64,000 nucleotides of DNA from Candidatus Wolfebacteria bacterium RIFOXYD12_FULL_48_21 (GTDB lineage: Bacteria > Patescibacteriota > Minisyncoccia > UBA6257 > UBA9933). The notes beneath the pieces are model-generated. The model was not told the DNA's origin. It saw nothing but the letters and a program-made list of their open reading frames with translations, and did no database searches. A program made the position numbers and the translations under genes. Location of the stretch: contig MGIW01000003.1 in NCBI GenBank assembly GCA_001793945.1, forward strand, positions 65,630 through 129,629. The letters are read 5' to 3'. Shown piece by piece: positions 879 to 48,261 of the stretch. Numbering within the stretch: the first letter of the stretch is position 1; each line of letters begins with the position of its first letter.

Positions 879-1194
879 TGCCGGACAAAAATATTATATC
901 GTAAGTATCATACTGTTTGCTGTCCAAATGTACGACCGTACATTTGGACAGCACAAAAGCCCTCGTCATAACCATGGGACTTTTTGTTGTTATCTTTTGC
1001 GACCGCAAAAGATAACAACAAAAAACTGCCTGCACCCCAAAAGGGTGCAGGCAGTGAGTCAGACAACGAGGGTCACATCAACACTCCGAAACTGCCGGGG
1101 GGTTTGGCTTGATCCACCCCGCTCTCTCGGCTAATTTCGTCAGCAGGCGGACGAGGGGAATAGCAATCCGACAACACTACAGATTCCTCGGCAA

Positions 1195-1285
1195 GCTCGG
1201 AATGACAATATAGGCGATGAGTGTCATCCCGAGTGCAACGCAGCGGAGCGGAGTGAAATCGAGGGATCTGTAGTAAAAACCTATC
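1195..1285. repeat. MITE-like palindromic intergenic repeat (TGTCATYCC...GGRATGACA family)
   Basis: CTCGGAATGACAA ... TGTCATCCCGAGTGCAACGCAGCGGAGCGGAGTGAAATCGAGGGATCTG. Confidence 0.6.
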
Positions 1286-1392
1286 TCTAAAGCTACAGGG
1301 CAAAGCCTATCCGTAGATAATGGGCATTCCTCTGTCCACTAATGCTGTGGGGGCTTGCATTTTTCTAAGTTATTCAGTATTCTACTACAACT

Positions 1393-1848
1393 ATGTTAGC
1401 AATAAAGTTAAATCGAATCGGGAAGAAGCATCAGCCGACCTTCCGTATCGTGGTCGCGGAAAAGCGATCAAAAATGGGCGGAAAGTATGTTGAAGACCTC
1501 GGTTTTTGGAACCCGCGTGAAAAAACGAGCTCCATTAACAAGGATCGCGCAACTTACTGGATCGGCGTTGGCGCACAGCCGACCGATACGGTCCACAACA
1601 TTCTTGTAAAGGGCCAGATCATCAAGGGAAAGAAGCGCTCTTCGCATGACATTAAGGCGCACCAGGAAGCATTAGATGCTCCGCGTAAAGCTGCGGAAGC
1701 AAAGGAGAAAGCCGATGCGGAAGCCGCTGAAGCTGCAAAGGCCGCTAAGGCAGCCGAAGAGGCAGCCGCAAAGGAAGCAGCTGAGGCGGCGAAAGCTGCC
1801 GAAGCAACCGTTGAAGAGGCAGCTCCGGAAACTCCGGCAGCGGAATAA
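1393..1848 (+). CDS. rpsP: 30S ribosomal protein S16 with an Ala/Lys/Glu-rich low-complexity C-terminal extension
   Basis: N-terminus MLAIKLNRIGKKHQPTFRIVVAEKRSKMGGKYVEDLGFWNP matches the S16 family. C-terminal ~60 aa are AKAAE repeats. Terminator at 1866-1902. Confidence 0.9.
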   Translation: MLAIKLNRIGKKHQPTFRIVVAEKRSKMGGKYVEDLGFWNPREKTSSINKDRATYWIGVGAQPTDTVHNILVKGQIIKGKKRSSHDIKAHQEALDAPRKAAEAKEKADAEAAEAAKAAKAAEEAAAKEAAEAAKAAEATVEEAAPETPAAE

Positions 1849-1865
1849 CGGTTTAAACAGATGTA

Positions 1866-1902
1866 CTAAAAAAGGCGCATTATACTATGCGTCTTTTTTG
1901 TT
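1866..1902 (+). terminator. Intrinsic terminator after rpsP
   Basis: AAAAAAGGCGCATTATACTATGCGTCTTTTTTG. Confidence 0.7.
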
Positions 1903-1914
1903 GCACCCTGTTGC

Positions 1915-1955
1915 CTGCCAATAAAAAAGCCCGCCAAACGGCGGGCTTTACACAA
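1915..1955. terminator. Bidirectional hairpin terminator
   Basis: AAAAAAGCCCGCCAAACGGCGGGCTTTAC. Confidence 0.6.
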
Positions 1956-1970
1956 ACCATACAGACTACC

Positions 1971-2795
1971 CTACTCGGCGGACGGGATTGGGTCTTTTGA
2001 TCTGTAAAAAACAAATCGCTTCACCGCTTTCGCCAGCATGTAGCTGACCAACATCGTCAGCACTATGAACATCACATATTCCATCGATTGATTCGCATTA
2101 CGAAAGAATGACGCAGGGATGGCAGCGATAACCGTAGGGACAATCATCATGGACAGTGGTAGGTGCACGATGGCTTCGACAATGAACATACCGACCACCG
2201 CACCCACTATCACAAGCAATAAACCTACACGAAACCCTCCGGACCAAACGAACTCGGACATGTTAATCGCAAAGGCGACGCCCAACAGCGTAAACAGGAA
2301 ACTGCCTCGCAATCTCCCGTCGTCGATGCAGTACTTTTTCCTTTGCGCATTTATGCTCACGCTTGCCACCGTGACAACGACGATTGCCATGGCAAGCGTC
2401 ATGAGCCATGAAGATTCTTTTTCGGGTTCGCTTGCGTGGGTGTTCGGATTCCCCCACTGGCCGTTTTTGAAGCTGACCACGGTTTTAGCGGTCAGCTTCT
2501 CATGTACCATAGGCACTCCAAAGCGCCACCGGGATTTCTTTCCCTCTTTTACCACATATTCCCCTTCGCCCATGTCCACAATGGTGCGGATCTTGGGAAA
2601 ATCGTGAGCAGGCACTTCTACCGACGGCATGGCATACTGCTCTTTCTTGAGCACTGTCTTTTCGATCGTTCTTACCGTCAACATGCCGTTGTCAACGGCC
2701 GTTTCTTCCACTACCTCTCCTCGGACAACGCCGACATAGCACGATACGGCGAACAGCACCGCAAACAGCACTCCGATGACAACTTTTATTTTCAT
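1971..2795 (-). CDS. Hypothetical multi-pass membrane protein with signal peptide
   Basis: N-terminal signal and TM helix plus several C-terminal TM helices. No recognisable catalytic motif. Confidence 0.45.
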   Translation of the reverse strand: MKIKVVIGVLFAVLFAVSCYVGVVRGEVVEETAVDNGMLTVRTIEKTVLKKEQYAMPSVEVPAHDFPKIRTIVDMGEGEYVVKEGKKSRWRFGVPMVHEKLTAKTVVSFKNGQWGNPNTHASEPEKESSWLMTLAMAIVVVTVASVSINAQRKKYCIDDGRLRGSFLFTLLGVAFAINMSEFVWSGGFRVGLLLVIVGAVVGMFIVEAIVHLPLSMMIVPTVIAAIPASFFRNANQSMEYVMFIVLTMLVSYMLAKAVKRFVFYRSKDPIPSAE

Positions 2796-3082
2796 CCCCT
2801 TTCCTCCCCCCTGTCTGTATTGATATCACTATCGATTAAACGTTCTGTTTAATAGATAACCTTTATTCTCTATCTTGTCAAATTTTTACTGTGCATGCTA
2901 CACGATCCATATTCTTTACTCACGGCATGCAGTTAATAGGGCAATGCACTCTTGATCGCATTCCCTCTGTGAACTAATAACCGTGAACTGTGAACTACTT
3001 GCCATGGACTCTTTTGTTGTAATCCCATGCGATAATCCGTATACTTATACATATCAATAATTCAAAGGTCGCATAGCACATA

Positions 3083-3394
3083 GTGCAAGAACAGCAATCA
3101 GACATGACAGAAGAAAAAGACCAGGCATTCCTCGAGTTTCTCGTCAAATCGATCGTCGATCATCCCGAGGATGTCACGGTGGAACGAAAAGTCGACGAAA
3201 TGGGAGTCCTTCTTAGCTTGAAGGTGAACCCGCTCGATATGGGCCAGATCGTCGGCCGCCAAGGCGCGACCGCAAAGGCGATGCGGTCCCTACTCCGCAT
3301 CGTAGGCGTTAAGAACCATGCACGGGTGAACCTTAAGATCGTCGAACCCGACGGATCGACGAGAATGCCCAAAGAAGAGTCGCACGATATGTGA
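3083..3394 (+). CDS. KH-domain RNA-binding protein (UPF0109/YlqC-like)
   Basis: GXXG-type KH motif IVGRQGATAKAMRSLLRIVG. Size and location near rpsP are typical of the rpsP-ylqC neighbourhood. Confidence 0.75.
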   Translation: MQEQQSDMTEEKDQAFLEFLVKSIVDHPEDVTVERKVDEMGVLLSLKVNPLDMGQIVGRQGATAKAMRSLLRIVGVKNHARVNLKIVEPDGSTRMPKEESHDM

Positions 3395-3490: not shown

Positions 3491-3558
3491 TGTCATTCCC
3501 GCGTAGGCGGGAATCCACTACAAAATGAAATGGATCCCCGCCTCCGCGGAGATGACAA
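3491..3558. repeat. MITE-like palindromic repeat, near-perfect copy
   Basis: TGTCATTCCCGCGTAGGCGGGAATCCA...TGGATCCCCGCCTCCGCGGAGATGACAA. Confidence 0.7.
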
Positions 3559-5269: not shown

Positions 5270-5336
5270 ACAAAAACCCCCGCTTGCCTGCCCGCATTGC
5301 TATGTAAAGCGTTGCAGGCTTGCGCGGGGGTTTTGT
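5270..5336. repeat. 63-bp GC-rich palindromic repeat (AAAACCCCCGCTTGCCTGCCCGCATTGCTATGTAAAGCGTTGCAGGC..GCGCGGGGGTTTT), copy 1, flanking the HepT/MNT cassette
   Basis: Near-identical to 5989-6058, with 46 nt identical plus matching termini. Hairpin flanked by A-run and T-run, so it is terminator-like on both strands. Confidence 0.7.
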
Positions 5337-5671
5337 TACTGCCTCAGCAATTCTTCCAATTTATTCTTAAATCTGGGCAATTCGTTTTTAATGACATTCC
5401 ATACCAATTGTAGATCAATCGTAAAGTATTCGTGTACGATCACATCGCGCATGCCCGATGCCTTGCGCCATTCTATCTCCGCGTGCTGCTCACGATACTC
5501 ATACGGCAGATTCTTTACCGCTTCGCCGATCACCTGCAAGCGACGGATTGCCGCATCTTGCATCGGCACATCGTCATAGAAATCATTCTCAGTCGCATCT
5601 CCGATATTCTCCTCGATATATTCAATACTCTCGATGATATGTTCCAAAAATATACGCGGATCCTTTTTCAT
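5336..5671 (-). CDS. HepT-like (DUF86) toxin of a HepT/MNT toxin-antitoxin pair
   Basis: ~110-aa helical protein downstream of, and overlapping by 4 bp with, an MNT nucleotidyltransferase gene. This is the classic HepT/MNT arrangement. Confidence 0.65.
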   Translation of the reverse strand: MKKDPRIFLEHIIESIEYIEENIGDATENDFYDDVPMQDAAIRRLQVIGEAVKNLPYEYREQHAEIEWRKASGMRDVIVHEYFTIDLQLVWNVIKNELPRFKNKLEELLRQ

Positions 5672-5970
5672 AGAATAGGTACTTGTTCCCGCAACACGGT
5701 ATCCCGTATTAAAGGTGAAATGGAACGATAGGTAACGATATCCACATCGCTTCCCAACGCGCTCTCTAATTTCTGCTTCAGATCGACCAGATCGAACAAG
5801 CTCTTATCTTCCGGAAACTCGACGAGTATATCAACATCACTTTTCTCGTTCGCTTCGCCGCGAACGACCGATCCAAACAAAGCAGACCGCTTCACATGAG
5901 CGTCTTTCAATATCGGCACTATGGTCTTTTTTATATCTTCAATCGAAGCGTTCATACACTTATAGTACAC
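5668..5970 (-). CDS. MNT-type minimal nucleotidyltransferase (antitoxin of HepT/MNT pair)
   Basis: Motif GSVVRGEANEKSDVDILVEF is the nucleotidyltransferase GS-X9-DxD signature. 100 aa. Confidence 0.75.
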   Translation of the reverse strand: MYYKCMNASIEDIKKTIVPILKDAHVKRSALFGSVVRGEANEKSDVDILVEFPEDKSLFDLVDLKQKLESALGSDVDIVTYRSISPLIRDTVLREQVPIL

Positions 5971-6228: not shown

Positions 6229-6394
6229 TGTTATAAATATATTATAACAAGTAATTTTTATTTGTCAAGAGCCTACACCACCTCCTGTGCCATTTGTCAA
6301 AGGCAAGCCTTATCACTATACAGGGTGCAAAATATTTGTCAAGTCCGAGTCTGTTATTACTACTAAGCCAGAAATCTATGACGCAATAGATTCC

Positions 6395-6492
6395 TGCTTC
6401 CCTGCCCGCAGTTGCTACAGCGTTGCAGACGGGCGCAGGAATGACAAAGAAAGGAGTGGGGACAACAAAAAGAGGCGGGAATGACAAAAGGG
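6395..6492. repeat. MITE-like repeat cluster
   Basis: GCAGGAATGACAAAG...GGCGGGAATGACAAAAGG. Carries the same inner core as the 63-bp repeats. Confidence 0.55.
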
Positions 6493-7979: not shown

Positions 7980-8100
7980 TGTCATCCCGTGCTTTAGCCT
8001 GTCCGTCCACTGACGGAACACGGGATCCAGCTCCTCTATAAAAACCGCTTGCGCGGTTTTTATATTTATTCTCTGGATTCCGGCTTTCGCCGGAATGACA
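7980..8100. repeat. MITE-like repeat cluster (two units)
   Basis: TGTCATCCCGTGCTTTAGCC...CACGGGATCCAG and GGATTCCGGCTTTCGCCGGAATGACAA. Confidence 0.6.
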
Positions 8101-9130: not shown

Positions 9131-10186
9131 GTTATACTTATCCATATGTACGACATCATTACCATAGGAACTGCAACGCGGGATGTGTTCATCAAAAGCC
9201 CGCTGTTCACCAATGTGCATGACCCGAAGCACCTAAAAAAACTCGGGTTTCTCGACGGCGACGCCACCTGCTTTATGCCGGGTGCGAAGGTAGAAATAGC
9301 CGCCCCTATTTTTGCGACCGGAGGCGGAGCGACCAATACCGCGACCACATTCGCGCGCATGGGGCTCAAATCGGCAATCATCGGCAAAATAGGCGCCGAT
9401 GACGGAGGTGAGCGCGTGCTCGCCGAATGCAAGGCGGAAGGCATCGCTTCCCGCATCATTACCGACAAAAAACTTTCCACCGCCTATTCGGTCATTCTCG
9501 TACCGCTTGCGGGCGAACGCACCATTCTTACACATCGGGGCGCATCGGACAAACTCAAGCCCGCGGACATTAGCCGCGCATCCGCAAAAACTCGCTGGAT
9601 ATACATCGTACCCGGCAACATCCCCTACCCGACCATCATGCATGCGGTCAATGTGTTTTCGAAACAGGGTAGCATGATCGCGCTCAACCCATCAAAGCAT
9701 GTGGTTGAAAAAGGATTGCGCGCGCTCAAGCCGCTTCTCGTAAAAATCGATGTACTGATCATGAACCGCGAAGAAGCCGCGACAATGACCGGCATCGCTT
9801 ATGACCGCATCGATGCCATACTCGCCGCCATCACGAGCGCGTTTGGCGGGATCGTTGCCGTGACCGATGGGGCGCATGGCGCATTCATTATGGATCGCGA
9901 GCGCCGCTATGATTGCGGAGTATTCCCCAAAAAGGCCCTTTCCGACGCGACCGGAGCTGGCGATGCCTACGGTAGCGGTTTTGTAAGCAGCCTTATTCAT
10001 ACACAGAAGACGAAAAAAGGCGCCTTTCCCGAAGATGCCATCCGCGAAGCCATCCGGGTTGCGGCCGCCAACAGCGCCTCGGTCGTTGAGCATGTCGGTG
10101 CAAAACATGGTATACTTACCCGAGAAGCAGTCCTGCGGAATCCCCGCTGGAAGAAGCTCCCGATAAAGGTATCGCCTTTAAAATAA
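9116..10186 (+). CDS. PfkB-family carbohydrate kinase (ribokinase-like)
   Basis: C-terminal DATGAGDAYGSGF matches the PfkB DTxGAGD signature. N-terminal GG-containing sugar-binding region. The true start may be Met at ~9146. Confidence 0.75.
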   Translation: MGSFFVILIHMYDIITIGTATRDVFIKSPLFTNVHDPKHLKKLGFLDGDATCFMPGAKVEIAAPIFATGGGATNTATTFARMGLKSAIIGKIGADDGGERVLAECKAEGIASRIITDKKLSTAYSVILVPLAGERTILTHRGASDKLKPADISRASAKTRWIYIVPGNIPYPTIMHAVNVFSKQGSMIALNPSKHVVEKGLRALKPLLVKIDVLIMNREEAATMTGIAYDRIDAILAAITSAFGGIVAVTDGAHGAFIMDRERRYDCGVFPKKALSDATGAGDAYGSGFVSSLIHTQKTKKGAFPEDAIREAIRVAAANSASVVEHVGAKHGILTREAVLRNPRWKKLPIKVSPLK

Positions 10187-10195: not shown

Positions 10196-10340
10196 TGTCA
10201 TTCCGGAATTTACCCGACGACAGGAGGATAAATATCCGGAATCCAGTTCAAATAATGCTTTTATTGTATTCTGCTTCTCGCAGAAGGTTGAAATGGATTC
10301 CCGTCCCCCTGCCTACCGGCAGGCAGGCGCGGGAATGACA
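10196..10340. repeat. MITE-like repeat cluster
   Basis: TGTCATTCCGGAATTTACC ... GGATTCCCGTCCCCCTGCCTACCGGCAGGCAGGCGCGGGAATGACAA. Confidence 0.6.
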
Positions 10341-11202: not shown

Positions 11203-12392
11203 TGATCCACTTCGTTAAAAATTCAGTTCTTCCGGCGGGGTTTCTGATTGCCAACATCATCGGCGCGGGTATGTTTGCGCTCCCTTTTGTATTTCAACAA
11301 TCCGGACTTATGCCAGGGGTTCTTTACCTCGGTTTTTTTGGCATCCTTGCCGCGCTCATACATTTGATCTACGCAGATATCATCTTACGCACCCGTGAAA
11401 CGCGGCAACAGTTTCCCGGCTACATTCGTCAATACCTCGGGAAAAATGCCGGAATGTTTGCCGGGCTTCTTGTGTTTACAACACTCCTTTTTACACTTAC
11501 CGCATATCTTGTTCTTTCGGCAAGCTTTTTACATATTCTCATTCCCACCCTTTCTCCGATCATTGCAATGCTGTTCTTTTGGGTGCTTGCGACTGTTACC
11601 ATATTCATTACCATCAAACGCACCGCTGTGTTTGATACCGTTACGGCCGGCATCACGCTTGCCGTCATCGGTGTGCTATTTATTTACTGGGGGCTTGTAT
11701 TTCCTTTTGATTCCGATGCATTCCCCATTCTTACCACAAAAAATGTCCTTGTGCCGTTTGGCCCGGTTCTTTTTTCTTTTATCGGGTTCTCGGCCATTCC
11801 CGCACTGGTCGCCTATGTCCGTAAAGAATCCGTTCCATTTTCAAATATGAAAAAGGCGATCGTTGTCGGCTCGCTTACGCCGGCCCTGTTTTATTTTTTG
11901 TATGTCGTTGCCGTATGGGGCATGTCGCCCACCGTTTCCCCTGATTCCGTTTCCGGGCTTATCGGCAATGCCCCATTTTTTATATTGCTTGCGCTGAGTA
12001 TTCTTGGATTCATATCCCTTTGGGATTCCTATTCCGGCGTAGGGCGCGACATCAATAAGCTACTCGAATACGAATGGCACATTACCCCGCCCATTGCTCT
12101 TGCGATCACAGCCGGCGCTCCGCCCGCGCTCTACATGTTTGGTTTTCAAGATTTTATTGCGCTTATTAGCGCAGTCGGCGGCATCTTGTTCAGCATTTGG
12201 GGCATTCTTATCATCTTTGCATGGAAAAAGGCGATCAAGGTCAGTATTCCGAGCGTCAAGTTTTCCGAGATCTATATCCCCGATCGCGTTTATTCTATTA
12301 TCAATGATATTCCGACATTCGTGATCGATCTTCTTGTGCTTGTCTTTGTGGGAGGGATCATTTACGAATTAGCGAGCCTGCTAACCCGATAG
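11203..12392 (+). CDS. Amino acid permease-like polytopic membrane transporter
   Basis: ~11 predicted TM helices. The ORF is open from 11088, but the likely start is MIHFVKNSVL. Family assignment (aromatic amino acid permease-like) is tentative. Confidence 0.5.
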
Positions 12393-12456
12393 CGTTCACA
12401 GTTGACCGTTCATAGTTTATAGGCATGTGCCAACTTAAAAATCTGTACCGCGAACT

Positions 12457-13410
12457 GTGAACTATGAACCGTTAACGAACTTTCATATGGAAGGCATTTT
12501 TCTATTCTATAAGCCGATTGGGTGGACCAACAAATCAATCGTTGGTTCCCTTAAACGAATATTACAGGTCGGGAAACTCGGCCATGCGGGCACGCTTGAC
12601 CCGTTCGCAGAAGGGCTCATGGTGGTCGCAATAGGCAGAAAGTTTACCCGCGGACTGCACGACCTTCTTACCGCCAGCACCAAAGAATATATCGCGACGA
12701 TTGAGCTTGGTAAAACAAGCGATACTTTCGACAACACGGGAACCATAACCGTCACCAGCTCCGATGCGCGTCCGTCTATCGACGATGTGCGGCACATAAT
12801 TGAAACCCATCTGCTGGGCGAGCGCACACAAGTGCCGCCTGTTTATTCCGCAAAGAAATTTGCCGGCAAACGCCTGCGTGACATAGCCACCAAAGAAGGC
12901 GCCCACGAACTCGCCGCATCCCGCGCCAAACAGGTAACGCTCTATGATTACGATGTCATTTCGTATTCCTACCCCCTGCTTACCGTTCGCCTTTCCGTTT
13001 CTTCGGGCTACTATATACGCACATTCGGAAACGACCTTGGCAAACTACTTGGGACTGGTGCCTACCTTACCGGTCTTAAGCGCACCCGTATCAACGGTTA
13101 TTCCGCCGATGATGCGCTTGCGCCTGACGATCTCGAACATGTCATTCAAGCACAGGGCCTGTTGCTCGGCGCCGTGCAAGGCGTCGGATACCGCTACTCC
13201 ATTAAAAACCTCGCCGAGCGATACCATTGCACCGGGTATGTTCATAATCTTCCCGATGGATCCGTTTCCTTTTTGGCACAAGGAACCGTGCGCGATGTTT
13301 CTTCGTTTTTGCAATTCGTTCTTCCGGGCCCGTTTGCATCTCGCGTCGAGGATCATTCGTTTTTGATCACGAAGCCACATGAGCTGTTTTCCGAATTTTC
13401 CGCCCAGTAA
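12457..13410 (+). CDS. truB: tRNA pseudouridine(55) synthase TruB fused to a C-terminal acylphosphatase domain
   Basis: N-terminal part has the TruB catalytic region GHAGTLDPFAEGLMVV. C-terminal ~90 aa carry both acylphosphatase signatures (LLGAVQGVGYRY and GYVHNLPDGSVSFLAQG). Confidence 0.75.
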   Translation: MNYEPLTNFHMEGIFLFYKPIGWTNKSIVGSLKRILQVGKLGHAGTLDPFAEGLMVVAIGRKFTRGLHDLLTASTKEYIATIELGKTSDTFDNTGTITVTSSDARPSIDDVRHIIETHLLGERTQVPPVYSAKKFAGKRLRDIATKEGAHELAASRAKQVTLYDYDVISYSYPLLTVRLSVSSGYYIRTFGNDLGKLLGTGAYLTGLKRTRINGYSADDALAPDDLEHVIQAQGLLLGAVQGVGYRYSIKNLAERYHCTGYVHNLPDGSVSFLAQGTVRDVSSFLQFVLPGPFASRVEDHSFLITKPHELFSEFSAQ

Positions 13411-13413: not shown

Positions 13414-13600
13414 ATGTGGTTATCCTGTCATCCCGAGCGCAACGCAGCGAAGCGAAGTGAAATCGACCGCGTGCCGCCATAGCTTTAGCGGTGGAGCAGG
13501 GATCTGCACTAAAAACAGATTCCTCGGCTCCGCGGAGTACCGCGGAGTTTACCCTGAGCTTGTCGAACGGGCTCGGAATGACAATGCTGTGGGGAATAAC
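13414..13600. repeat. MITE-like repeat cluster
   Basis: TGTCATCCCGAGCGCAACGCAGCGAAGCGAAGTGAAATCGA ... CTCGGAATGACAA. Confidence 0.6.
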
Positions 13601-13661
13601 CGATAACTAATGACTAATAACGGGGCAAGAGGTTGGAGGGTGGAGATGAGAGGTTAGGGGT

Positions 13662-13860
13662 TGGGGGGTGTCATCCCGAGTGCAACGCAGCGAAGTGGAG
13701 TGAAATCGAGGGATCTGCCGAATAGGCTCGGAATGACAATGCGGAATATTATACTCCTCCACATACCGGCAAATAAAAATCTCCATTTGATAAATGGAGA
13801 TTTTTATTCCGATAGAAGTGGATTCCCGCCTCCGCGGGAATGACAAAAAGAGGTGCGGGG
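13662..13860. repeat. MITE-like repeat cluster
   Basis: TGTCATCCCGAGTGCAACGCAGCGAAGTGGAGTGAAATCGAGGGATCTG ... GGATTCCCGCCTCCGCGGGAATGACAA. Confidence 0.6.
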
Positions 13861-13871
13861 ATGACAATACT

Positions 13872-14903: not shown

Positions 14904-15006
14904 GTGGGTAGCAGGTATATAGTATAAGGTATTAAGTATACAGCAGCAGTATCGCTCTGCGGGCATTAAACATACCGTATACCTTATACCCTATACGATA
15001 TACAAT

Positions 15007-15582: not shown

Positions 15583-15697
15583 TTTCTAATTTATAATGGC
15601 TCATTGCCAATTTCTTGCTGCCCATACTGCTTAATTTCCTATACTATAGCGTTGTTTCGGGTAAAAATCAAAATGCGGCACCTGCGCCGCATGTTGA

Positions 15698-32134: not shown

Positions 32135-32216
32135 CGGATTTACTATAGCAGAATACCCTAAATAATGCAAGCCCCTTATGCGGGGGGGGTGCGACATACT
32201 CCAGACATGCAGCCCG

Positions 32217-33098: not shown

Positions 33099-33124
33099 TA
33101 TACCATATTTTAGTATGTTATTCC

Positions 33125-34480: not shown

Positions 34481-34551
34481 GGGGTTATTATAGCATATTG
34501 GGGGCGGGGAGGTATAAGGTATAGGATATACGGTATACGGTATGGGAGGGA

Positions 34552-34995: not shown

Positions 34996-35014
34996 GTAAC
35001 GACGTCCGACATCG

Positions 35015-35695
35015 TTACATTGTCCTTTTCCCGTACTGCGCGCGCCATGCGTCTATTTTTTTATGATCGCCTGAAACCAATACCGGTGGGACTTTATATT
35101 TTTTTCCTTTAAACACAAACTCGCTTGGGCGCGTATATGCCGGTACGCCGACGCCGTGGCGCAATTCTTCGAGCGACTCACCTTTCCCTAATACGCCGCC
35201 GATCTTACGCGAAAGCGCATCTACTAGCACCATGGCCGGCAATTCTCCGCCGGTCAACACATATGGCCCGATGGACAATTCTTCCGTTTTAAATCCCATA
35301 TCCTTTACGATCTTTTTCACACGCTCGTCCATGCCTTCATAATGCGCGCAGATCAATATGAGCCGTTTTATTTTTTTTGCGGTCTTATTTGCGTACGCAT
35401 CGTCGATTTGCTTGCCGCCCGGGGCAAAAAATACGACGCTCGTTTCCTTTTCGAATTTTTTGGTTTTTTTTGCCACCGCCGCAATGGCCTTTATGAGCGG
35501 CTCGATCTTCATGACCATGCCCGGTCCGCCGCCAAACGGCCTGTCATCCGTTTTATGGTGCTTGTCGGTGGCATACGCCCGCAAGTCATGTACATGTATT
35601 TGTATCAGTTTCTTTTCCTGCGCCCGCTTTAAAATAGACTCATTCAGATATGAGTCGAATATATGCGGGAAAATTGTGATGATGTCGAAACGCAT
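35015..35695 (-). CDS. trmD: tRNA (guanine37-N1)-methyltransferase
   Basis: SPOUT-fold TrmD motifs (MRFDIITIFP..., YEGMDERV, VLTGGELPAMVLVDA). Confidence 0.9.
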   Translation of the reverse strand: MRFDIITIFPHIFDSYLNESILKRAQEKKLIQIHVHDLRAYATDKHHKTDDRPFGGGPGMVMKIEPLIKAIAAVAKKTKKFEKETSVVFFAPGGKQIDDAYANKTAKKIKRLILICAHYEGMDERVKKIVKDMGFKTEELSIGPYVLTGGELPAMVLVDALSRKIGGVLGKGESLEELRHGVGVPAYTRPSEFVFKGKKYKVPPVLVSGDHKKIDAWRAQYGKRTM

Positions 35696-35870: not shown

Positions 35871-36713
35871 ATGATTCACTTCCTCCATGGTGCCGACGCC
35901 TATCGGCGCGAACACCGCCTCCGCGAACTGATTGCGGCATATCAAAAAAAATATGACACCCGCTCGGTCGGCAGGTTTGATTTCGATACCGAAGACGATA
36001 TTTTGCGCTTCAAGGATTTTTGCGCCCAGCAGACGATGTTCGAGACCAAACGCCTTGCCGTGATCGATGCCGTGTTTTCCATCAAAGGGTCCGAGGAGGC
36101 GCAGCATATTCTTAAAGCAACGCTAAGCAACAAAGATGTGATCGTTTTCATATCCGAGCTTACCGACGAGACCAACCCGCGCCCGCGGGAACGGGTGCTT
36201 GTTCCTAAAGATCTGCTTTTTTTGCTCAACGCTCCGGCGATCGCCGAAATGTTCGAACCGCTTTCCGACGCAAAGCTCGCTTTCTTTATTTCCGCCGAGG
36301 CAAAGAAGCACTCGATCGCGCTTTCTCCAGAAGCAGCCGATTTTCTTGTATTCGCATTGCGCCGCGATACGCAACTCATTATGAACGAATTGGAAAAGAT
36401 CGCGCTCTATTACAACGAACCTTCGCGGGAACTCTCGCGCCAAGATGTCGAGCTGCTCGTTGACTACCTTGAGTCCCCCGACATATTCGCCTTTACCAAC
36501 GCGGTATCCAAGCAGGGCCCGCTTGCGAGCCGGCTTACACCGCTGGAACGCCTATTCATGAACCGCGAAGAATCCGCAAAAATATTCAACATATTTGCAA
36601 AAAACCCATTCATCGATCTGGCGACCGTGCGCATGTTGGCCGATCACGACATTCTCATAAAATCCGGCAAGCTCGATTACGAAACCGCTTTGCTTGACTG
36701 CTGCTTTAAATAA
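35871..36713 (+). CDS. holA: DNA polymerase III delta subunit
   Basis: N-terminal MIHFLHGADAYRREHRL resembles the HolA start. 280 aa with a winged-helix C-terminal region. Confidence 0.6.
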   Translation: MIHFLHGADAYRREHRLRELIAAYQKKYDTRSVGRFDFDTEDDILRFKDFCAQQTMFETKRLAVIDAVFSIKGSEEAQHILKATLSNKDVIVFISELTDETNPRPRERVLVPKDLLFLLNAPAIAEMFEPLSDAKLAFFISAEAKKHSIALSPEAADFLVFALRRDTQLIMNELEKIALYYNEPSRELSRQDVELLVDYLESPDIFAFTNAVSKQGPLASRLTPLERLFMNREESAKIFNIFAKNPFIDLATVRMLADHDILIKSGKLDYETALLDCCFK

Positions 36714-36811
36714 CCGATAACCTAAAACCAATAACCCATAACAAAAATGCCGCGTAATGCGGTATTTCATATTCCTTGCTCTCTTTAAAATCTCCTTGTG
36801 TTGATTTTGTC

Positions 36812-36882
36812 ATTCCCGCGGAGGCGGGAATCTATTATAATACTGGATCCCCGCCTCCGCGAGGATGACACAGGGGCAATGT
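36812..36882. repeat. MITE-like repeat
   Basis: TGTCATTCCCGCGGAGGCGGGAATC...GGATCCCCGCCTCCGCGAGGATGACA. Confidence 0.65.
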
Positions 36883-36899
36883 GTTACTTAGAGATGAGT

Positions 36900-39145: not shown

Positions 39146-39278
39146 GCCTCCGTTATGTGTCATTCCTGCGAAAGCAGGGATCTATGTATTGTCATCCCGG
39201 GCGAAGTGGAACGGAGTCGAGGGATCTGCTACAGATTCCTCGGCTCCGCAGAGTACCGCTCCACTCGGAATGACATAC
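39146..39278. repeat. MITE-like repeat cluster
   Basis: TGTCATTCCTGCGAAAGCAGGGATC, TGTCATCCCGGGCGAAGTGGAACGGAGTCGAGGGATCTG, CTCGGAATGACAT. Confidence 0.6.
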
Positions 39279-40997: not shown

Positions 40998-41098
40998 ATT
41001 TGTCATCCCGAGCGAATCCGTCAGCCGACGGAGGAGCCGAGGGATCTGCTACAGATTCCTCGGCTACGCGGAGTACCGTTTCGCTCGGAATGACAAGC
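40998..41098. repeat. MITE-like repeat
   Basis: TGTCATCCCGAGCGAATCCGTCAGCCGACGGAGGAGCCGAGGGATCTG ... CTCGGAATGACAA. Confidence 0.6.
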
Positions 41099-41895: not shown

Positions 41896-42000
41896 TTGTC
41901 ATCCCCGTCTCAGCCGCTTGTCATCCCTGCGAAAGCAGGGATCTATACCACCGCAGATTCCTTCCGCCAGCAAGCGGACTAAAGGCACAGGAATGACAAA
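41896..42000. repeat. MITE-like repeat cluster
   Basis: TGTCATCCCCGTCTCAGCC, TGTCATCCCTGCGAAAGCAGGGATC, CAGGAATGACAA. Confidence 0.55.
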
Positions 42001-43092: not shown

Positions 43093-43130
43093 CTGTCATT
43101 CCCGTCCGCCAGCTGGCGGAGGAATCCACT
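43093..43130. repeat. MITE-like repeat (single palindrome)
   Basis: TGTCATTCCCGTCCGCCAGCTGGCGGAGGAATCCA. Confidence 0.55.
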
Positions 43131-43296: not shown

Positions 43297-43390
43297 TTGT
43301 CATTCCGATCCGTCAACTGACGGACGAGGAATCTGCCTTCAGATCCCTCGGCTCCTCCGCCAGCTGGCGGATTCACTCGGGATGACAATG
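43297..43390. repeat. MITE-like repeat
   Basis: TGTCATTCCGATCCGTCAACTGACGGACGAGGAATCTG ... CACTCGGGATGACAA. Confidence 0.6.
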
Positions 43391-43395
43391 CAATA

Positions 43396-43425
43396 AAAAA
43401 TCCGCCATAGGGCGGATTTTTTTAC
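43396..43425 (-). terminator. Intrinsic terminator after rpmB
   Basis: Minus strand GTAAAAAAATCCGCCCTATGGCGGATTTTTTATTGC. Confidence 0.65.
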
Positions 43426-43625: not shown

Positions 43626-43854
43626 AGTTTTCGTATATTACCTTAGATTTTTCCACTTGTAAAGCCCCTCGCGGGGCCTTGCAAGTGAATATCGGCTTCG
43701 TGATATCCCGACTGTAAGTCAGGTGGGTGAGTTCAACCGAAGCCCTAAGACCTCGATACTATTACTCTCCCAAATCAACATTGATAACTCGAGAATCATT
43801 GCCGATATTCTATATTCAGTATAGCAGTTCCCCGTAAAAAGAAACACCCCAACT

Positions 43855-43996
43855 TCTGTCATTCCGGCCCACGAGCCGGAATCCACTGCCATTCTCGTGC
43901 GAAACGCACATTATGGTATACATTCCGCATTGGGTTGAACTGGATCCCGGATCACTTCGACAAGCTCAGCGCAAGGTAAGTCCGGGATGACAATGT
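43855..43996. repeat. MITE-like repeat cluster
   Basis: TGTCATTCCGGCCCACGAGCCGGAATCCA ... GTCCGGGATGACAA. Confidence 0.55.
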
Positions 43997-46218: not shown

Positions 46219-46224
46219 TTACTA

Positions 46225-46297
46225 CGCTTCGTCAATTTTTTAGATAGTGTGGTTTTATTCCACCTTTAGCGTCGGTTATGCGTGCTCAAGCCCGACG
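46225..46297 (-). repeat. Cassette 3' trailer module, copy 1 (palindrome CGTCGG-N16-CCGACG plus GGTGG..CCAC stem plus A-run with TTGACG)
   Basis: CGCTTCGTCAATTTTTTAGATAGTGTGGTTTTATTCCACCTTTAGCGTCGGTTATGCGTGCTCAAGCCCGACG. ~85-90% identical to the copies at 46573-46646, 49686-49761 and 49981-50051. Confidence 0.65.
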
Positions 46298-46304: not shown

Positions 46305-46451
46305 CTACCCGTTGTAATCAACGATTAGCGGACATGTTACTATCGCCACAACCCCCACCAGGATTACAGCTGGGATCCAATGCCCGAACCCGAGTATTGA
46401 TATCCCCATACAAACCGCCATGGTAGCGGCCCACTGATATATAATTTTCAT
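46305..46451 (-). CDS. 48-aa hydrophobic small peptide (cassette ORF-1; type I toxin-like or bacteriocin-like)
   Basis: MKIIYQWAATMAVCMGISILGFGHWIPAVILVGVVAIVTCPLIVDYNG. Strong RBS GGAGGcagtATG immediately preceded by the hairpin GCCCGGcaaCCGGGC. The ORF-track 80-aa version includes leader sequence. Confidence 0.4.
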   Translation of the reverse strand: MKIIYQWAATMAVCMGISILGFGHWIPAVILVGVVAIVTCPLIVDYNG

Positions 46452-46452
46452 A

Positions 46453-46570
46453 CTGCCTCCTCGCCCGGTTGCCGGGCAATGTTTTTTTAAATGTGCACTT
46501 CCTTCGAATTCCCGTTCTGTGAACCGAAACTCGATGAGAAGGGGCAAGCGATAAAACTATCACTTGCCCA
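46453..46570 (-). promoter_or_regulatory. Conserved cassette leader module, copy 1: TTGACG, GGGCAAG hairpin, CGGTTCACAGAACGGGAATTCGAAGG box, RBS-adjacent hairpin GCCCGGcaaCCGGGC, GGAGG
   Basis: Read on minus strand. Repeated with the same order at 46949-47070 (partial), 49581-49671, 49862-49940 (degenerate) and 50150-50290 (degenerate). Confidence 0.55.
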
Positions 46571-46572
46571 CA

Positions 46573-46646
46573 CGCTTCGTCAATTTTTTAAACAGTGTGG
46601 TTTTCTTCCACCTTTAGCGTCGGTTATGCGTTCTCAAGCCCGACGG
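46573..46646 (-). repeat. Cassette 3' trailer module, copy 2
   Basis: CGCTTCGTCAATTTTTTAAACAGTGTGGTTTTCTTCCACCTTTAGCGTCGGTTATGCGTTCTCAAGCCCGACGG. Confidence 0.65.
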
Positions 46647-46948: not shown

Positions 46949-47035
46949 ACTGCCTCCTCGCCCGTTTACCGGGCAATGTTTTTGGAAAGATCAAATGTTA
47001 GGTTGGTTGTTTTTTACACTTCCATCCTTACACCC

Positions 47036-47068
47036 TTACAATACCAGTATTCACAAAATGTGTCAACT
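47036..47068 (-). promoter_or_regulatory. Putative sigma70-type promoter for the cassette ORF-2/ORF-1 transcription unit
   Basis: Minus strand TTGACA-17 nt-TATTGT, ~80 nt upstream of the ORF-2 ATG. Divergent from the TrmB promoter at 47125-47155. Confidence 0.4.
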
Positions 47069-47124
47069 ATTCCGTCAAACTCTTAGTTTACTTTTCTTTC
47101 CTTTCTTATTTTTCCGCATAAACA

Positions 47125-47155
47125 TTGACAAAATCCTTGCTTTTGGTAGTATATA
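47125..47155 (+). promoter_or_regulatory. Putative promoter of TrmB-family regulator gene
   Basis: TTGACA-17 nt-AGTATA(TA). Confidence 0.45.
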
Positions 47156-47227
47156 AAAAACGGTCCTTTCGTCGACATATTCATATAATTACATTTATAT
47201 CATCTCTAATTAATACATTCCCTTTGT

Positions 47228-47292
47228 GTCATCCCCGCGAAGGCGGGGATCCAGTATTATATGGATTCCCGCCTTCGCGGGAATGACAAGAT
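47228..47292. repeat. MITE-like repeat
   Basis: TGTCATCCCCGCGAAGGCGGGGATCCAG...GGATTCCCGCCTTCGCGGGAATGACAA. Confidence 0.65.
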
Positions 47293-47331
47293 TCGGAACT
47301 GTTTAATTAGACTTGGTATTGTATCGCTGCC

Positions 47332-48060
47332 ATGCTTACAAAAAACCTGCAAAAGATCGGGCTCAATGAAAAGGAGGCAAAGGTCTATCTCGCTTCCCTT
47401 GAATTGGGGGAAGCCAATATTCAGCGTATCGCCAAAAAGGCGGGCATCAAGCGCACCACCGCCTACGATATTCTTGCCTCCCTTAAAGAAAAGGGCCTTA
47501 TCAGTACGGTTAAAAAAGATAAACGCTTCTATTATTATGCCGAAAACCCTTCATCATTGATGGCCGATCTGGAGGAAAAGCAGGAGGCACTAAAGAAGAT
47601 CATGCCCGAGCTTCTTTCGTTCGATAACCTCTTGGACCGCAAACCAAAGATCCGCTATTTCGAAGGAGCGCAGGGACTGAAAGAAGTCTATATGGACACA
47701 CTCGGCTATCCGGACCGGGAAATGCTTTCGTGGGTCGCCGAAGAAGCGTTTTATGATTTTGATGTTGATTTTCTTGAATCCCGTTATCACCCCACACGGA
47801 TCAAGAAAAAAATCTGGACCCGCGAGATCGCATCTGATGACCCTGCAACACGCGCCTATCAGGCGAAAGACGCAAGCAGTCTGCGCAAAACAAAGCTGCT
47901 TCCTTCGAAGCCGTTTCCCTTGGATGTTGGCATCAGCATCTATGGCGACAACAAGGTAGGAATCGTTTCCTTCAAAGAAGAGCTTGGTCTTATCATCGAA
48001 AGCGACAAGATCCACAACACGCTCAAAAGCATGTTTGAGTTCTTTTGGGAAAAGCTTTGA
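47332..48060 (+). CDS. TrmB-family transcriptional regulator (N-terminal wHTH plus C-terminal domain), paralog 1
   Basis: N-terminus IGLNEKEAKVYLASLELGEANIQRIAKKAGIKRTTAYDILASLKEKGLIS matches the TrmB HTH. Plus-strand promoter TTGACA-17-AGTATA at 47125-47155. Confidence 0.7.
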   Translation: MLTKNLQKIGLNEKEAKVYLASLELGEANIQRIAKKAGIKRTTAYDILASLKEKGLISTVKKDKRFYYYAENPSSLMADLEEKQEALKKIMPELLSFDNLLDRKPKIRYFEGAQGLKEVYMDTLGYPDREMLSWVAEEAFYDFDVDFLESRYHPTRIKKKIWTREIASDDPATRAYQAKDASSLRKTKLLPSKPFPLDVGISIYGDNKVGIVSFKEELGLIIESDKIHNTLKSMFEFFWEKL

Positions 48061-48111
48061 CCCCTCTGAATTACAAAACCCCCCTTGTCTTGCCGTAAAC
48101 CTGACTATTGT

Positions 48112-48235
48112 CATTCCGAGCCCATTCGTCCGCCAGCTGGCGGATCAGGGTAAACCGTAGTCGAGGAATCCGCAGTGCTTTTACTACAGATCCCTCGGCT
48201 CCGTTTCACTCCACTCGGGATGACATGCCGAGTTT
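48112..48235. repeat. MITE-like repeat (last copy in window; none downstream of 48.3 kb)
   Basis: TGTCATTCCGAGCCCATTCGTCCGCCAGCTGGCGGATCAGGG ... CTCGGGATGACAT. Confidence 0.6.
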
Positions 48236-48261
48236 CGTAATTTAAAGTTGATAAGAATAAA

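Follow-up and report, generated by a model that had tools for sequence, protein, structure and literature searches.

The DNA analyzed here, a 64,000-nucleotide stretch of a contig from a Candidatus Wolfebacteria bacterium of groundwater (the window), carries a family of palindromic repeats in its intergenic gaps from position 1180 to 48225, in agreement with the range first given for them. The original prediction that such a family saturates the intergenic DNA of the first 48 kb is borne out: TGTCATYCC occurs 52 times against 1.09 expected (shuffle maximum 4), and the full half-site TGTCATYCC-N6-36-GGRATCYR 36 times against 0.01 expected. We cataloged ∼63 hairpin units of 27–100 nt each, counting degenerate and half units, which total 2,503 nt; from 1 to 48.3 kb, this amounts to 25% of the intergenic sequence and 5.2% of the sequence overall. 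They lie in 25 intergenic gaps by the strict motif, or ∼27 with degenerate copies, at one to six units per unit-bearing gap. Beyond either end of the window, units go on at similar density. The low-GC block at 48.3–64 kb is devoid of them. With even the best in-window copies only 87–92% alike, there is no sign of a very recent burst.

The basic unit is an oriented hairpin that reads (GYWT)TGTC, ATYCC-stem-loop-stem-GGRAT, and then C(Y)(R). What had been described as one element with terminal inverted repeats consists of two oriented units facing one another, TGTCATYCC-stem/loop-GGRATC(Y) and its mirror image. This inverted “+ then −” doublet, in which the GGRATC ends face each other, makes up 14 of the window's 21 pairs of adjacent units. 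It dominates in two independent locus sets as well (42/54 and 43/52 adjacent pairs). Solo units are strand-biased, with 14 on the − strand and 4 on the + strand.

Two subfamilies coexist. Subfamily 1 (sf1) is NTS-like, with a fully Watson-Crick 8-bp stem and a GNAG or GAAA loop. Its stem covaries: 98.4% of cells are paired, changes on both sides are found in five of eight pairs, and none of 500 shuffles reaches the observed value; the changes are partly G-U-compatible. Subfamily 2 (sf2), TGTCATYCCGAG...CGAGGRATCTG, forms five Watson-Crick pairs followed by would-be tandem G·A pairs and is as common as sf1. The hairpin of the sf2 unit on its own is not significant in the DNA energy model (z = −0.06). 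The relevant structure for sf2 could instead be the doublet-level palindrome. A doublet as a whole is palindromic and folds into a single long hairpin. In both subfamilies, nested palindromes in the loop often make the unit longer. Among the submotifs once thought to be combined in a mosaic, CCGCCAGCTGGCGG and CCTGCCTACCGGCAGGCAGG are real and prove to be such nested palindromes, whereas the 7/14-nt tandem repeat ATAACCGATGACTAATAAC is distinct from the units and adjoins them.

Table 1. Positions of hairpin units and unit clusters in the window.
Position	Strand	Feature	Details
1180–1270	.	Two back-to-back units, no doublet	sf2 1180–1207 (−), sf2 1222–1270 (+); then a GTAAAAACC leader resembling the ssnA leader of L038
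3491–3556	.	sf1 (NTS-like) inverted doublet	3491–3517 (+), degenerate 3530–3556 (−); abuts start of pilB-like gene
6387–6486	−	Long unit with nested hairpin	Unit 6387–6446; upstream 5′ half-unit “stutter” 6475–6486
7980–8100	.	Doublet	7980–8029 (+), 8074–8100 (−); spacer holds ordinary terminator-like hairpin and T-run, about 8035–8065
10196–10340	.	Doublet, long units	Nested CCTGCCTACCGGCAGGCAGG insert in right unit
13426–13866	.	Cluster, convergent truB/M50 gap	sf2 doublets 13426–13506/13516–13583 and 13669–13717/13719–13738 (degenerate); ordinary bidirectional terminator 13775–13810; sf1 unit 13819–13845 (−); half unit 13855–13866
16913–17051	.	sf1 solo and sf2 doublet	Solo 16913–16939 (−), then doublet 16953–17005/17024–17051
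17608–17662	−	Long solo unit, nested double palindrome	DNA fold −20.3 kcal/mol, z = −6.5
19118–19220	−	Degenerate unit and sf2 unit	sf2 unit 19193–19220; upstream of glyS; synteny break of strain L012
21298–21376	.	sf2 doublet, hyp604/recO gap	Orthologous L249 gap is 5 nt
22141–22326	.	sf1, then sf2 doublet	22141–22207, then 22217–22326
23641–23783	.	Doublet of long sf1-type units	
25717–25769	.	Hybrid single hairpin	Outer ends on both sides (TGTCATTCC...GGAATGACA), without inner ends
27988–28061	.	sf1 doublet	Variants GTCACCCC / GTCATACC
28556–28783	.	sf1 degenerate unit, 14-nt tandem run, doublet	Unit 28556–28582; doublet 28661–28724 (degenerate)/28728–28783
33165–33239	−	Long unit and half unit	Unit 33165–33221 with nested CCGGAGTTTATCCCGTA..TACGGG insert
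34553–34987	.	Largest cluster	sf2 doublet 34553–34639; units 34652–34715 (−), 34745–34772 (−); 14-nt tandem run; doublet 34860–34888/34927–34987; adjoins pilin-like cluster missing in L247
36808–36870	.	sf1 doublet	Same gap in relative L247 holds a HicA toxin gene instead
39158–39275	.	sf1 solo and sf2 doublet, gatC/gatA gap	Solo 39158–39184 (+), doublet 39190–39228/39232–39275
41001–41095	.	sf2 doublet, tatD/bacA gap	DNA fold −37 kcal/mol, z = −9.7
41897–41998	.	Half unit, then doublet	41897–41908, then 41919–41945/41954–41998
43094–43128	+	Solo unit with CCGCCAGCTGGCGG insert	Adjoins tRNA-Pro
43298–43387	.	Doublet, tRNA-Pro/rpmB gap	Then ordinary terminator-like hairpin, about 43395–43420
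43857–43992	.	Doublet, rpmB/ndk gap	Missing in relative L247
47227–47288	.	Near-perfect NTS-like sf1 doublet	DNA fold −29.6 kcal/mol, z = −9.7; within 117-nt segment 47202–47318 missing in L247 and L157, bounded by GATAYA direct repeat
48109–48225	.	Last doublet	Border of unit-free low-GC block

Because the hairpins are strong and covarying, in part through G-U-compatible changes, and because most units sit in gaps whose flanking genes run in the same direction (18 of 38 such gaps bear them), the units might act primarily at the RNA level, as terminators, attenuators, mRNA-stabilizing 3′ hairpins, or a small-RNA family. They will certainly fold in transcripts. However, the stem is not followed by a U-tract, and only two units pass even a lenient terminator scan, such that the terminator role originally suggested finds no backing; ordinary terminators stand beside or between units in the same gaps. 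Moreover, units are found in either orientation relative to transcription, in divergent promoter gaps, in the likely operon interior between gatC and gatA, and a few nucleotides before start codons, and they have no match in Rfam. Orthologous gaps also work without units in L249, a more distant Wolfebacteria relative (about 73% nucleotide identity) that has no full unit in 21 kb and whose gaps measure 5–100 nt and carry plain terminators. We consider a primarily RNA-level role unlikely.

In a close relative, most gaps hold different units, and the presence or absence of whole doublets is seen against L247, L157, L006, and L012. Since the distant relative is unit-free at the same gaps, these sequence comparisons indicate lineage-specific expansion and fast turnover of units. 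Strain-level indels, a synteny break, and the presence or absence of gene clusters all map to unit-bearing gaps, which lends circumstantial support to the proposal that the repeats are recombination hot spots. Nonetheless, almost every long gap has units, and therefore this association is not independent. The notion that inserted genes are flanked by related repeats fares less well: HepT/MNT has units on one side (6387–6486) and none on the other, and at the head of the cassettes at 46–50 kb stands a 74-nt repeat that is unrelated to the units.

The units might also be attachment or target sites of a site-specific recombinase or phage that persist through their use by mobile elements. Neisseria dRS3 provides a precedent, being the integration site of filamentous prophages via an IS110-like transposase (cited in PMC11893778). 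In addition, strains differ in gene content at unit-bearing gaps, among them those at the HicA toxin gene, the pilin-like cluster, the synteny break, and the low-GC block borders. With nearly every long gap bearing units, however, such co-location may be trivial, and Pfam tables for the window and its flanks list no gene of a recombinase, an integrase, or a prophage. We give this reading little credence, although it is compatible with the explanation favored below.

The resemblance to Neisseria dRS3/NIME repeats is stronger than the original prediction held, because the short units carry the dRS3 pattern itself and are not merely analogous. The exact pattern ATTCCCN8GGGAAT has four matches in the window (0 expected), and six units match the 28-nt Neisseria NTS at two to three mismatches (0 expected). 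The published expression for Ssn-related motifs (SRMs) matches eight units against 0.22 expected; it fits only those eight, as most units exceed its allowed length. These definitions of SRM, NTS, and dRS3 are those of Chenal et al. 2025 (PMC11893778), in which Neisseria repeats of the dRS3/NTS kind were shown to be targets of small Ssn GIY-YIG single-stranded DNA nucleases. The bases reported there as critical, a GTC on the 5′ side of the stem and a C immediately after its 3′ end, are invariant among the window units. Ssn reportedly cuts 5′ of the unit (PMC11893778), and this is the side on which 5′ half-unit “stutters” adjoin full units.

Some similar units in other bacteria stand beside a GIY-YIG gene. 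We found sf2 units in >119 stretches from >12 phyla, and the inverted doublet likewise in >12 phyla. Three Acidobacteriota-type loci (L038, L251, and L252) have the order left unit, GIY-YIG gene, right unit, with the right unit supplying the TGA stop; the L038 gene matches PF01541 (E = 3×10−14). Another locus (L193) has a unit directly after the stop of its GIY-YIG gene. CPR includes Ssn-type proteins, and in a CPR Roizmanbacteria locus (L253) a doublet lies 7 nt upstream of the GIY-YIG gene ATG, while the unit downstream of this ssnA contains the same nested insert as window unit 33165–33221. The spacer CTGCACGTAAAACC beside ssnA in L038 resembles window spacers at 1262, 13500, and 34594. The associated gene encodes a single-domain GIY-YIG protein of ∼100 amino acids, a candidate member of the Ssn family, which PMC11893778 defines by CDD cd10448. 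Across the unit-bearing loci of other taxa (1.6 Mb in total), there are only four GIY-YIG genes, three Ssn-like and one (L192) YhbQ/SLX1-like, and thus one gene corresponds to many repeats.

By analogy with these loci, where a GIY-YIG gene stands beside or between such units, the Wolfebacteria doublets are best read as gene-less miniature counterparts of an SRM-ssnA-SRM cassette. We think it likely overall that the repeats are SRMs, of the kind first known as Neisseria dRS3/NTS, and that such doublets have multiplied in the intergenic DNA of a single Wolfebacteria lineage, where turnover continues. An Ssn-type GIY-YIG gene or remnant was sought in the window and in ∼130 kb of unique lineage sequence (∼15% of the ∼0.9-Mb genome), and by a targeted metagenome scan, and none was found, so that Ssn action in the Wolfebacteria genome is inferred. 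No transposase or RAYT gene turned up in the same ∼130 kb.

Two transposon-type readings bear on the same architecture. Classical MITEs, of which the Correia element is an example, are non-autonomous DNA transposons that depend on a DDE transposase for movement; they have terminal inverted repeats and are flanked by target-site duplications. The single-hairpin fold of doublets and the GATAYA direct repeat bounding one window-specific 117-nt insertion (Table 1) would suit this type. However, only the central 62 nt of that insertion are repeated, with unique flanks; in the other filled/empty comparisons, the gap is replaced as a whole with no duplication, and target-site duplications at units are not consistent. 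No transposase lies near units in the window, and the same 28-nt unit occurs in >12 phyla, unlike lineage-bound MITEs. The MITE label first applied therefore holds only loosely, given that the supposed terminal repeats are two self-contained units of 27–100 nt and that solo and half units are frequent, as are nested inserts; a MITE origin proper seems very improbable. Mobilization of REP/REPIN-type doublets in trans by RAYT, an IS200/IS605-like Y1 transposase, as for Pseudomonas and Escherichia coli BIMEs, would account for oriented units in inverted doublets and intergenic mosaic clusters, operon interiors included, and the strand bias of solo units is as expected under mobility based on single-stranded DNA. 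REPs carry a GTAG-type 5′ tetranucleotide, however, which is missing from the units, and no Y1 transposase is present in the window or neighboring gene tables. In four loci of other taxa, the gene between or beside units encodes a GIY-YIG nuclease and not RAYT. This mode of mobilization is most unlikely.

Under the favored SRM reading, each unit would fold when DNA becomes single-stranded, during replication or uptake by the competence machinery (ComEC, DprA, a PilB-like ATPase, and pilin are encoded). An Ssn nuclease might bind the folded unit and nick a few nucleotides 5′ of GTC, and repair or recombination at the nick could spread, delete, and reshuffle units. Such nicking would also modulate the integration of incoming DNA. 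We know of no copying mechanism that operates via a hydrolytic nuclease. Transcript hairpins, spurious ORFs, and changes to the 5′ and 3′ untranslated regions would be by-products. As proposed, ORFs 13607–13867 and 22049–22327 cross unit clusters, and the recO and holB ORFs exceed the public gene calls in length; the rpsO extension (32135–32242), in contrast, contains no unit. One public gene call (L003, 14344–14796; window 34334–34786) is itself an ORF spanning a unit cluster.

Compared with known systems, the repeats share with REP/BIME/REPIN and RAYT a build of oriented hairpin units that form inverted doublets and mosaic clusters, as well as the relation of one gene, flanked by its own repeats, to many copies. 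They differ in sequence family, and the product of the SRM-associated gene is a hydrolytic nuclease of the GIY-YIG type, not an HUH Y1 transposase. Like Correia elements, they are short and palindromic, lie between genes, give rise to spurious ORFs, and change the ends of genes, but they are modular, extremely widespread taxonomically, and without fixed length or consistent target-site duplication. NIMEs are blocks of repeated RS sequences with dRS3 boundaries. The Wolfebacteria clusters resemble them in the exact dRS3 pattern and in forming intergenic mosaics that adjoin variable genes, whereas the DNA between units is mostly short and unique and the hairpin units themselves are the repeats.

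The closest counterparts are SRM/NTS repeats with SsnA (PMC11893778). Both have the core GTCATTCCCGCG-loop-CGCGGGAATC and the oriented flanks 5′ GTC and 3′ C, and both are hairpin-forming, intergenic, present at hundreds per Mb, and distributed across phyla. Both flank a small GIY-YIG gene, here in the Acidobacteriota-type and CPR Roizmanbacteria loci; a cognate gene is so far missing from the ∼130 kb of the Wolfebacteria lineage. Most Wolfebacteria units are far longer than the 20–50-nt motif because of their nested palindromes, sf2 with its non-Watson-Crick GAG/CGA step is an additional form, and the inverted doublet is the rule. The present host belongs to CPR (Patescibacteria), which PMC11893778 does not mention. 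As the repeats are of the same kind as the known Ssn cut sites of Neisseria, what is new is the host in which this known repeat system occurs and not the kind of element.

The motif at the outer end of the repeat, TGTCATYCC, occurs 52 times in the window, compared with 1.09 matches expected and a maximum of 4 in any of 100 shuffles, and nearly all of these matches fall within 1.2-48.2 kb. By inspecting every such site and assigning a matching inner end to each outer end, we defined the repeat unit as an oriented intergenic hairpin whose consensus, read site by site across the window, is TGTC followed by ATYCC, a stem and loop, GGRAT and C(Y)(R). The full half-site TGTCATYCC-N6-36-GGRATCYR is found 36 times, against 0.01 expected. 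Our catalogue holds ∼63 units, with degenerate copies and half units (5′ fragments of a unit) counted in, and these cover 2,503 nt, or 25% of the intergenic DNA and 5.2% of the first 48.3 kb. Units extend past both ends of the window and are absent from a low-GC block at 48.3-64 kb. The proteins encoded in the window match, without any difference, those of Candidatus Wolfebacteria MAGs from the Rifle aquifer (RIFOXYD12_FULL_48_21 and relatives), and its GatA recurs on contigs of up to 893 kb. According to public gene calls of identical contigs, units are present in 18 of 38 co-directional, 4 of 6 convergent and 2 of 5 divergent gaps, and they also occur between gatC and gatA and a few nucleotides ahead of start codons. 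Seven of ∼60 outer-end motifs lie within gene calls, and these are mostly chance 9-mers or dubious calls. Because the motif counts and the gap survey agree with them, the coordinates, counts and examples of the palindromic repeat given in the original prediction are correct.

The units form two subfamilies with identical ends, an NTS-like one (sf1) and a second one (sf2). An sf1 unit (for example, TGTCATTCCCGCGAAGGCGGGAATCCA) consists of a stem of 8 bp closed by a 4-nt loop. Across 16 aligned sf1 units, 98.4% of cells are paired and changes on both sides are seen in five of the eight pairs; this level of pairing was reached by none of 500 shuffles, and slid registers do not come close either. 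The sf2 pattern TGTCATYCCGAG...CGAGGRATCTG is present in 15 copies in the window, with 0 expected. Units of this subfamily have five Watson-Crick pairs and then GAG opposite CGA, a step that would comprise tandem G.A pairs plus one G-C pair, and the fold of the 28-nt sf2 unit is not significant under the energy model (z = -0.06). Many units of both subfamilies are longer because their loops harbor nested palindromes (CCGCCAGCTGGCGG, CCTGCCTACCGGCAGGCAGG, CCGGAGTTTATCCCGTA..TACGGG).

Adjacent units usually form a facing doublet, in which a + unit is followed by a - unit so that their GGRATC ends are turned toward each other (14 of 21 adjacent pairs in the window), and such a doublet folds as a single long hairpin (-29.6 and -37 kcal/mol, z ∼ -9.7). 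The element with terminal inverted repeats described in the original prediction is therefore palindromic as a whole, but it is really two oriented units that face each other. The two units of the sf1 doublet at 47227-47288 differ by a compensated pair inside each unit. Because this difference leaves each unit hairpin perfect while introducing mismatches into the long hairpin, selection seems to act on the single unit. Some full units are preceded, at a distance of 9-10 nt, by truncated 5′ half units (TGTCATYCCCGY), and the four bases ahead of TGTC are weakly conserved as GYWT. The closest copies inside the window are only 87-92% identical, and thus no very recent burst is visible. Solo units, which lack a partner, number 14 on the - strand and 4 on the + strand. 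GC skew is negative across the whole window; should the - strand serve as lagging-strand template here, the strand bias of solo units would agree with a mechanism based on ssDNA. This bias is confounded with gene orientation.

A full-text search with the dRS3 pattern and pieces of the unit led to the work of Chenal et al. 2025 (PMC11893778). In that study, about half of Neisseria dRS3 repeats are a 28-nt oriented hairpin, the Neisseria Transformation Sequence (NTS; CGTCATTCCCGCGMAVGCGGGAATCYRG), and Ssn-related motifs (SRMs) are spread over many phyla. SsnA, a 94-aa single-domain GIY-YIG nuclease, binds both only as ssDNA and cuts them a few nucleotides upstream, on one strand; cleavage and binding depend critically on the GTC that precedes the stem and on the C that follows it. 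The repeats usually flank the ssnA gene, which is present in 81% of genomes with >200 SRMs (PMC11893778).

The published SRM expression, HGTCWYN(0-2)YYVSBRHN(0-5)WNVSBRGN(0-2)RNCYNB, matches the window 8 times, compared with 0.22 expected from 100 shuffles; the other ∼50 units share both ends and carry loops or inserts longer than this expression permits. The dRS3 pattern ATTCCCNNNNNNNNGGGAAT has four exact matches (0 expected). Six units lie within 2-3 mismatches of the NTS, again with 0 expected: the best, at 47261-47288, has two mismatches and five have three, and all six begin with T, not C. The paper's definition of an NTS allows at most one mismatch, and so the window units are not NTS copies in the strict sense. 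GTC 5′ of the palindrome and C 3′ of it are present in 36 of 36 full half-sites, and the sf1 alignment shows no variation at T1 G2 T3 C4 A5 or at the C that follows GGRAT. The hairpin-forming semi-palindrome expected of an SRM or NTS is evident in sf1, the hairpin of the single sf2 unit being weak, and the clustered, intergenic and rarely genic placement expected of these repeats is likewise observed. On the basis of the dRS3, NTS and SRM matches together with the invariant GTC and C, the sf1 units are, as judged from their sequence, members of the SRM/NTS kind of repeat.

The comparison with Neisseria dRS3 in the original prediction was thus apt. Its extension to NIMEs applies only in part: NIMEs are blocks of repeated RS sequences (50-150 bp) bounded by dRS3, and although the dRS3 pattern is present exactly, the repeat families of the window are the units themselves, separated by short and mostly unique spacers.

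A primary role at the RNA level, for example as the terminators proposed in the original prediction, does not hold. Intrinsic terminators consist of a GC-rich hairpin and a U-tract, but the U-tract is missing after the stem, and only two units (39162 and 34768) pass a lenient terminator scan of 33.0-48.5 kb. Moreover, ordinary terminators adjoin units in the same gaps, units occur in both orientations, and a unit-free relative manages without them. Rfam searches of the whole window at the gathering score and of 43-50.3 kb at E ≤ 1 returned only tRNA-Pro and chance matches, and hence nothing corresponding to the units.

This unit-free relative (L249/L250) is a more distant Wolfebacteria, with ∼73% nucleotide identity in shared genes and a GlyRS that shares a 90% protein cluster with that of the window. 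Over 21 kb it lacks any full unit, and its orthologous gaps measure 5-100 nt and hold ordinary terminators; the alignment of intergenic gaps with it is too poor to define clean insertion sites. The closer relative L247 (84-96% identity) is unit-rich like the window, but has different units at most gaps. The doublet at 43857-43992 is missing in L247, and the asnS-ndk gap has a doublet in L247 and in locus L006 and none in the window. The doublet at 47227-47288 lies in a 117-nt segment that is missing from L247 and from locus L157 and is bounded by a 6-nt direct repeat, GATAYA. These presence/absence differences, the divergent units of L247 and the unit-free relative indicate a lineage-specific expansion with ongoing gain, loss and replacement of units.

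The GATAYA repeat is the one feature among the comparisons of filled and empty gaps that resembles a target-site duplication. A classical MITE or Correia-like element, one of the comparisons drawn in the original prediction, would have a fixed length, terminal inverted repeats and a constant target-site duplication. This reading fails: unit lengths vary, solo and half units are present, and the single 6-nt flanking repeat has unique flanks. When the outer flanks of the 117-nt insertion were tested as part of a larger element, they proved unique in the window and in all loci.

Larger differences also coincide with units. A pilin-like cluster at 32176-35022 (a 357-aa N-methyl protein plus 69-aa and 290-aa ORFs) has unit clusters at its borders and is missing in L247, where trmD is directly followed by rpsO (14313-14387). 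L247 carries a HicA toxin gene beside its DUF7387 gene (12371-12583), and the window has the doublet 36808-36870 instead (within 36714-36899). Strain L012, which comes from another sample, loses synteny with the window within the unit-bearing gap that precedes glyS (window ∼19135) and has different genes upstream of glyS at 9640-10000 (thioredoxin reductase and others); a similar GGAGGAGGGCTCT hairpin is kept in this gap in both strains. The recombination hot spots of the original prediction accordingly find indels, a synteny break and gene presence/absence at unit-bearing gaps in their favor. However, because nearly every long gap has units, this co-location is compatible with recombination at units and is not proof of it. 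The HepT/MNT insertion, said to be flanked by relatives of the repeat, has units on one side only (6387-6486 beside the gene pair at 5336-5955). A possible additional role of the units is as recombinase or phage attachment sites.

Several other features stand out in the window (see the table). Read on the - strand, a 74-nt repeat combines a CGTCGG..CCGACG hairpin with an A-tract and a -35-like box, TTGACG. It precedes asnS and small unannotated ORFs (46318-46563, 49155-49658) by 30-80 nt and resembles a promoter or leader module repeated at the head of cassette-like genes. The ∼200-nt leader of rpmB (L28) at 43626-43830 lacks an Rfam match and is ∼98% identical to L247 amid intergenic DNA that cannot be aligned, which suggests a conserved structured leader. 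Tandem runs (AATAACC/GATGACT, AGGTATA, TAATTTC, CTCCCATCTCACAT) adjoin gene starts and often the outer ends of hairpin units, and a 15-nt analogue follows the nuclease cassette of an Acidobacteriota-type locus (L251). The low-GC block spans 48300-64000 and continues to ∼65.9 kb (position 6797 of L009), with a GC content of 41-44% compared with ∼50%. Its genes include those for three TrmB-type regulators, an AbiEii toxin and several periplasmic-binding-protein/ABC transporters. Unit clusters mark its two borders, and it is probably a recently acquired island.

Positions of half units and other repeats in the window, and in L247 where indicated
Feature	Positions	Remark
Half unit	13855-13866	
Half unit	6475-6486	
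Half unit	33228-33239	
Half unit	41897-41908	
74-nt repeat	46224-46297, 46572-46645, 49687-49760, 49978-50051; L247 2664-2738, 3011-3084	Unrelated to hairpin units
Tandem runs, period 7 or 14 nt	14913-15003, 15566-15615, 17118-17146, 22004-22037, 23579-23606	
Tandem runs, period 7 or 14 nt	28595-28628, 31254-31285, 34510-34543, 34782-34815, 36709-36742	

When the sf2 pattern was scanned across species-representative genomes, it was found in at least 119 stretches. The taxa among the matches listed are mostly Acidobacteriota, with Planctomycetota, Burkholderiales, Bacteroidota, Chloroflexota, Gemmatimonadota, Nitrospirota, Omnitrophota, Firmicutes and others also represented. A second scan, for units with the CCGCCAGCTGGCGG insert and aimed at Wolfebacteria contigs, yielded 115 metagenome loci, in which the insert is widespread across many metagenomes rather than singling out Wolfebacteria. 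The facing doublet dominates in both sets (42 of 54 and 43 of 52 adjacent pairs, respectively).

Some of these repeats adjoin nuclease genes. In a Terriglobia locus (L038), a left and a right sf2 unit exactly bracket a 108-aa GIY-YIG ORF (PF01541, E = 3e-14). The same layout recurs in two homologues retrieved together with their surroundings (L251 and L252), where the TGA stop codon is supplied by the right unit, and L252 carries a half-unit stutter as in the window. A unit directly follows the stop codon of a GIY-YIG gene in a groundwater contig, and in a CPR Roizmanbacteria locus a doublet ends 7 nt ahead of the start codon of another. The downstream unit of the latter locus has a nested CCGGAGTTTA..CCCGTA insert that is shared with window units 33165-33221 and 34927-34987. 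Furthermore, the left-unit spacer of L038, CTGCACGTAAAACC, resembles the window doublet spacers CTGCACTAAAAAC (13500), CTGCAGTAAAAAAC (34594) and CTGTAGTAAAAACC (1262). The doublet architecture of the window is the same as that at the flanks of GIY-YIG genes elsewhere. From these resemblances, we read the window doublets as gene-less counterparts of a unit-ssnA-unit cassette.

Given their size, single-domain build and context, the GIY-YIG proteins of these loci are putative members of cd10448, the family of the published nuclease. PDB and NCBIfam searches with them returned only UPF0213 structures and a weak group I intron endonuclease match, and no SsnA name. Homologues named Roizmanbacteria and 'Patescibacteria group' in protein searches indicate that the family exists in CPR bacteria. 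Most Ssn-type homologues in the protein collection sit on contigs of 0.5-2 kb, which suggests that Ssn cassettes and repeats regularly break metagenome assemblies.

We searched for a cognate enzyme in this lineage by phmmer, using GIY-YIG seeds and later real Ssn-type proteins, by tblastn, and by Pfam scans of 40 window ORFs and one flank ORF (L007) combined with inspection of precomputed Pfam tables. The ∼130 kb of unique sequence covered in this way (the window, 10 kb on either side and further contigs of the lineage, roughly 15% of the genome) yielded no Ssn-type gene or remnant and no RAYT, transposase or integrase, and thus neither the cognate transposase nor the dRS3-like integrase raised in the original prediction was recovered there. 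REP/REPIN elements mobilized by a RAYT would follow the same logic, but represent the wrong gene and sequence family: the gene flanked in other taxa is GIY-YIG, not RAYT, and the Y1 transposase domain (PF01797) is absent from the scanned ORFs and the Pfam tables of window and flanks. Metagenomes scanned specifically for a YVYI start behind a left unit of the Wolfebacteria type gave 0 matches, and two protein searches for Ssn homologues returned Acidobacteria, Roizmanbacteria and 'Patescibacteria', with no Wolfebacteria name among the best 120. The unannotated ORFs 1971-2795 and 35871-36713 (∼275 aa each), considered as a multi-copy gene, are unrelated to each other.

In the SRM/NTS interpretation, an Ssn nuclease would recognize units of the Wolfebacteria genome as hairpins in ssDNA and nick them 5′ of GTC, and repair of the nick might copy, truncate and reshuffle them. 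The half-unit stutters sit where the Ssn cut reportedly falls. Competence genes are encoded (ComEC, DprA, a PilB-like ATPase and a pilin), and nicking of units could affect the integration of DNA imported by this machinery. More speculatively, and in our view improbably, the gene-less doublets might be true non-autonomous elements of an unrecognized transposon type, with a ∼100-aa GIY-YIG Ssn protein as the enzyme and copying through host repair of ssDNA nicks. If so, a quarter of the intergenic DNA of one CPR lineage stems from a burst, the stutters of half units on the 5′ side of full ones are footprints of the reaction, and the lineage might have lost the nuclease or might obtain nuclease or repeats through DNA uptake.

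For annotation, the units matter as a cause of spurious ORFs and wrong start codons in public CPR entries, and they probably break metagenome assemblies as well. They make up 5% of a streamlined genome, which is unusual at such a small genome size. A unit-rich lineage, a close relative with different units and a unit-free relative together constitute a natural experiment on repeat spread.

Whether SRM-ssnA-SRM is or was a mobile element has been left as an open suggestion (PMC11893778). Our data support this suggestion, because the inverted doublet equals the ssnA flanks in several phyla, and the contrast between unit-rich and unit-free Wolfebacteria, together with the relation of doublet to cassette, offers a useful case for testing the mobility of Ssn cassettes. 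The host range of Ssn and SRMs, described in 2025 mainly in Neisseria, Wolbachia and other Proteobacteria, now extends to CPR. The repeats of the window are of the kind described in that year, in a new and unusual host, a CPR/Patescibacteria member with a small genome, where the variants are longer, nested and dominated by doublets.
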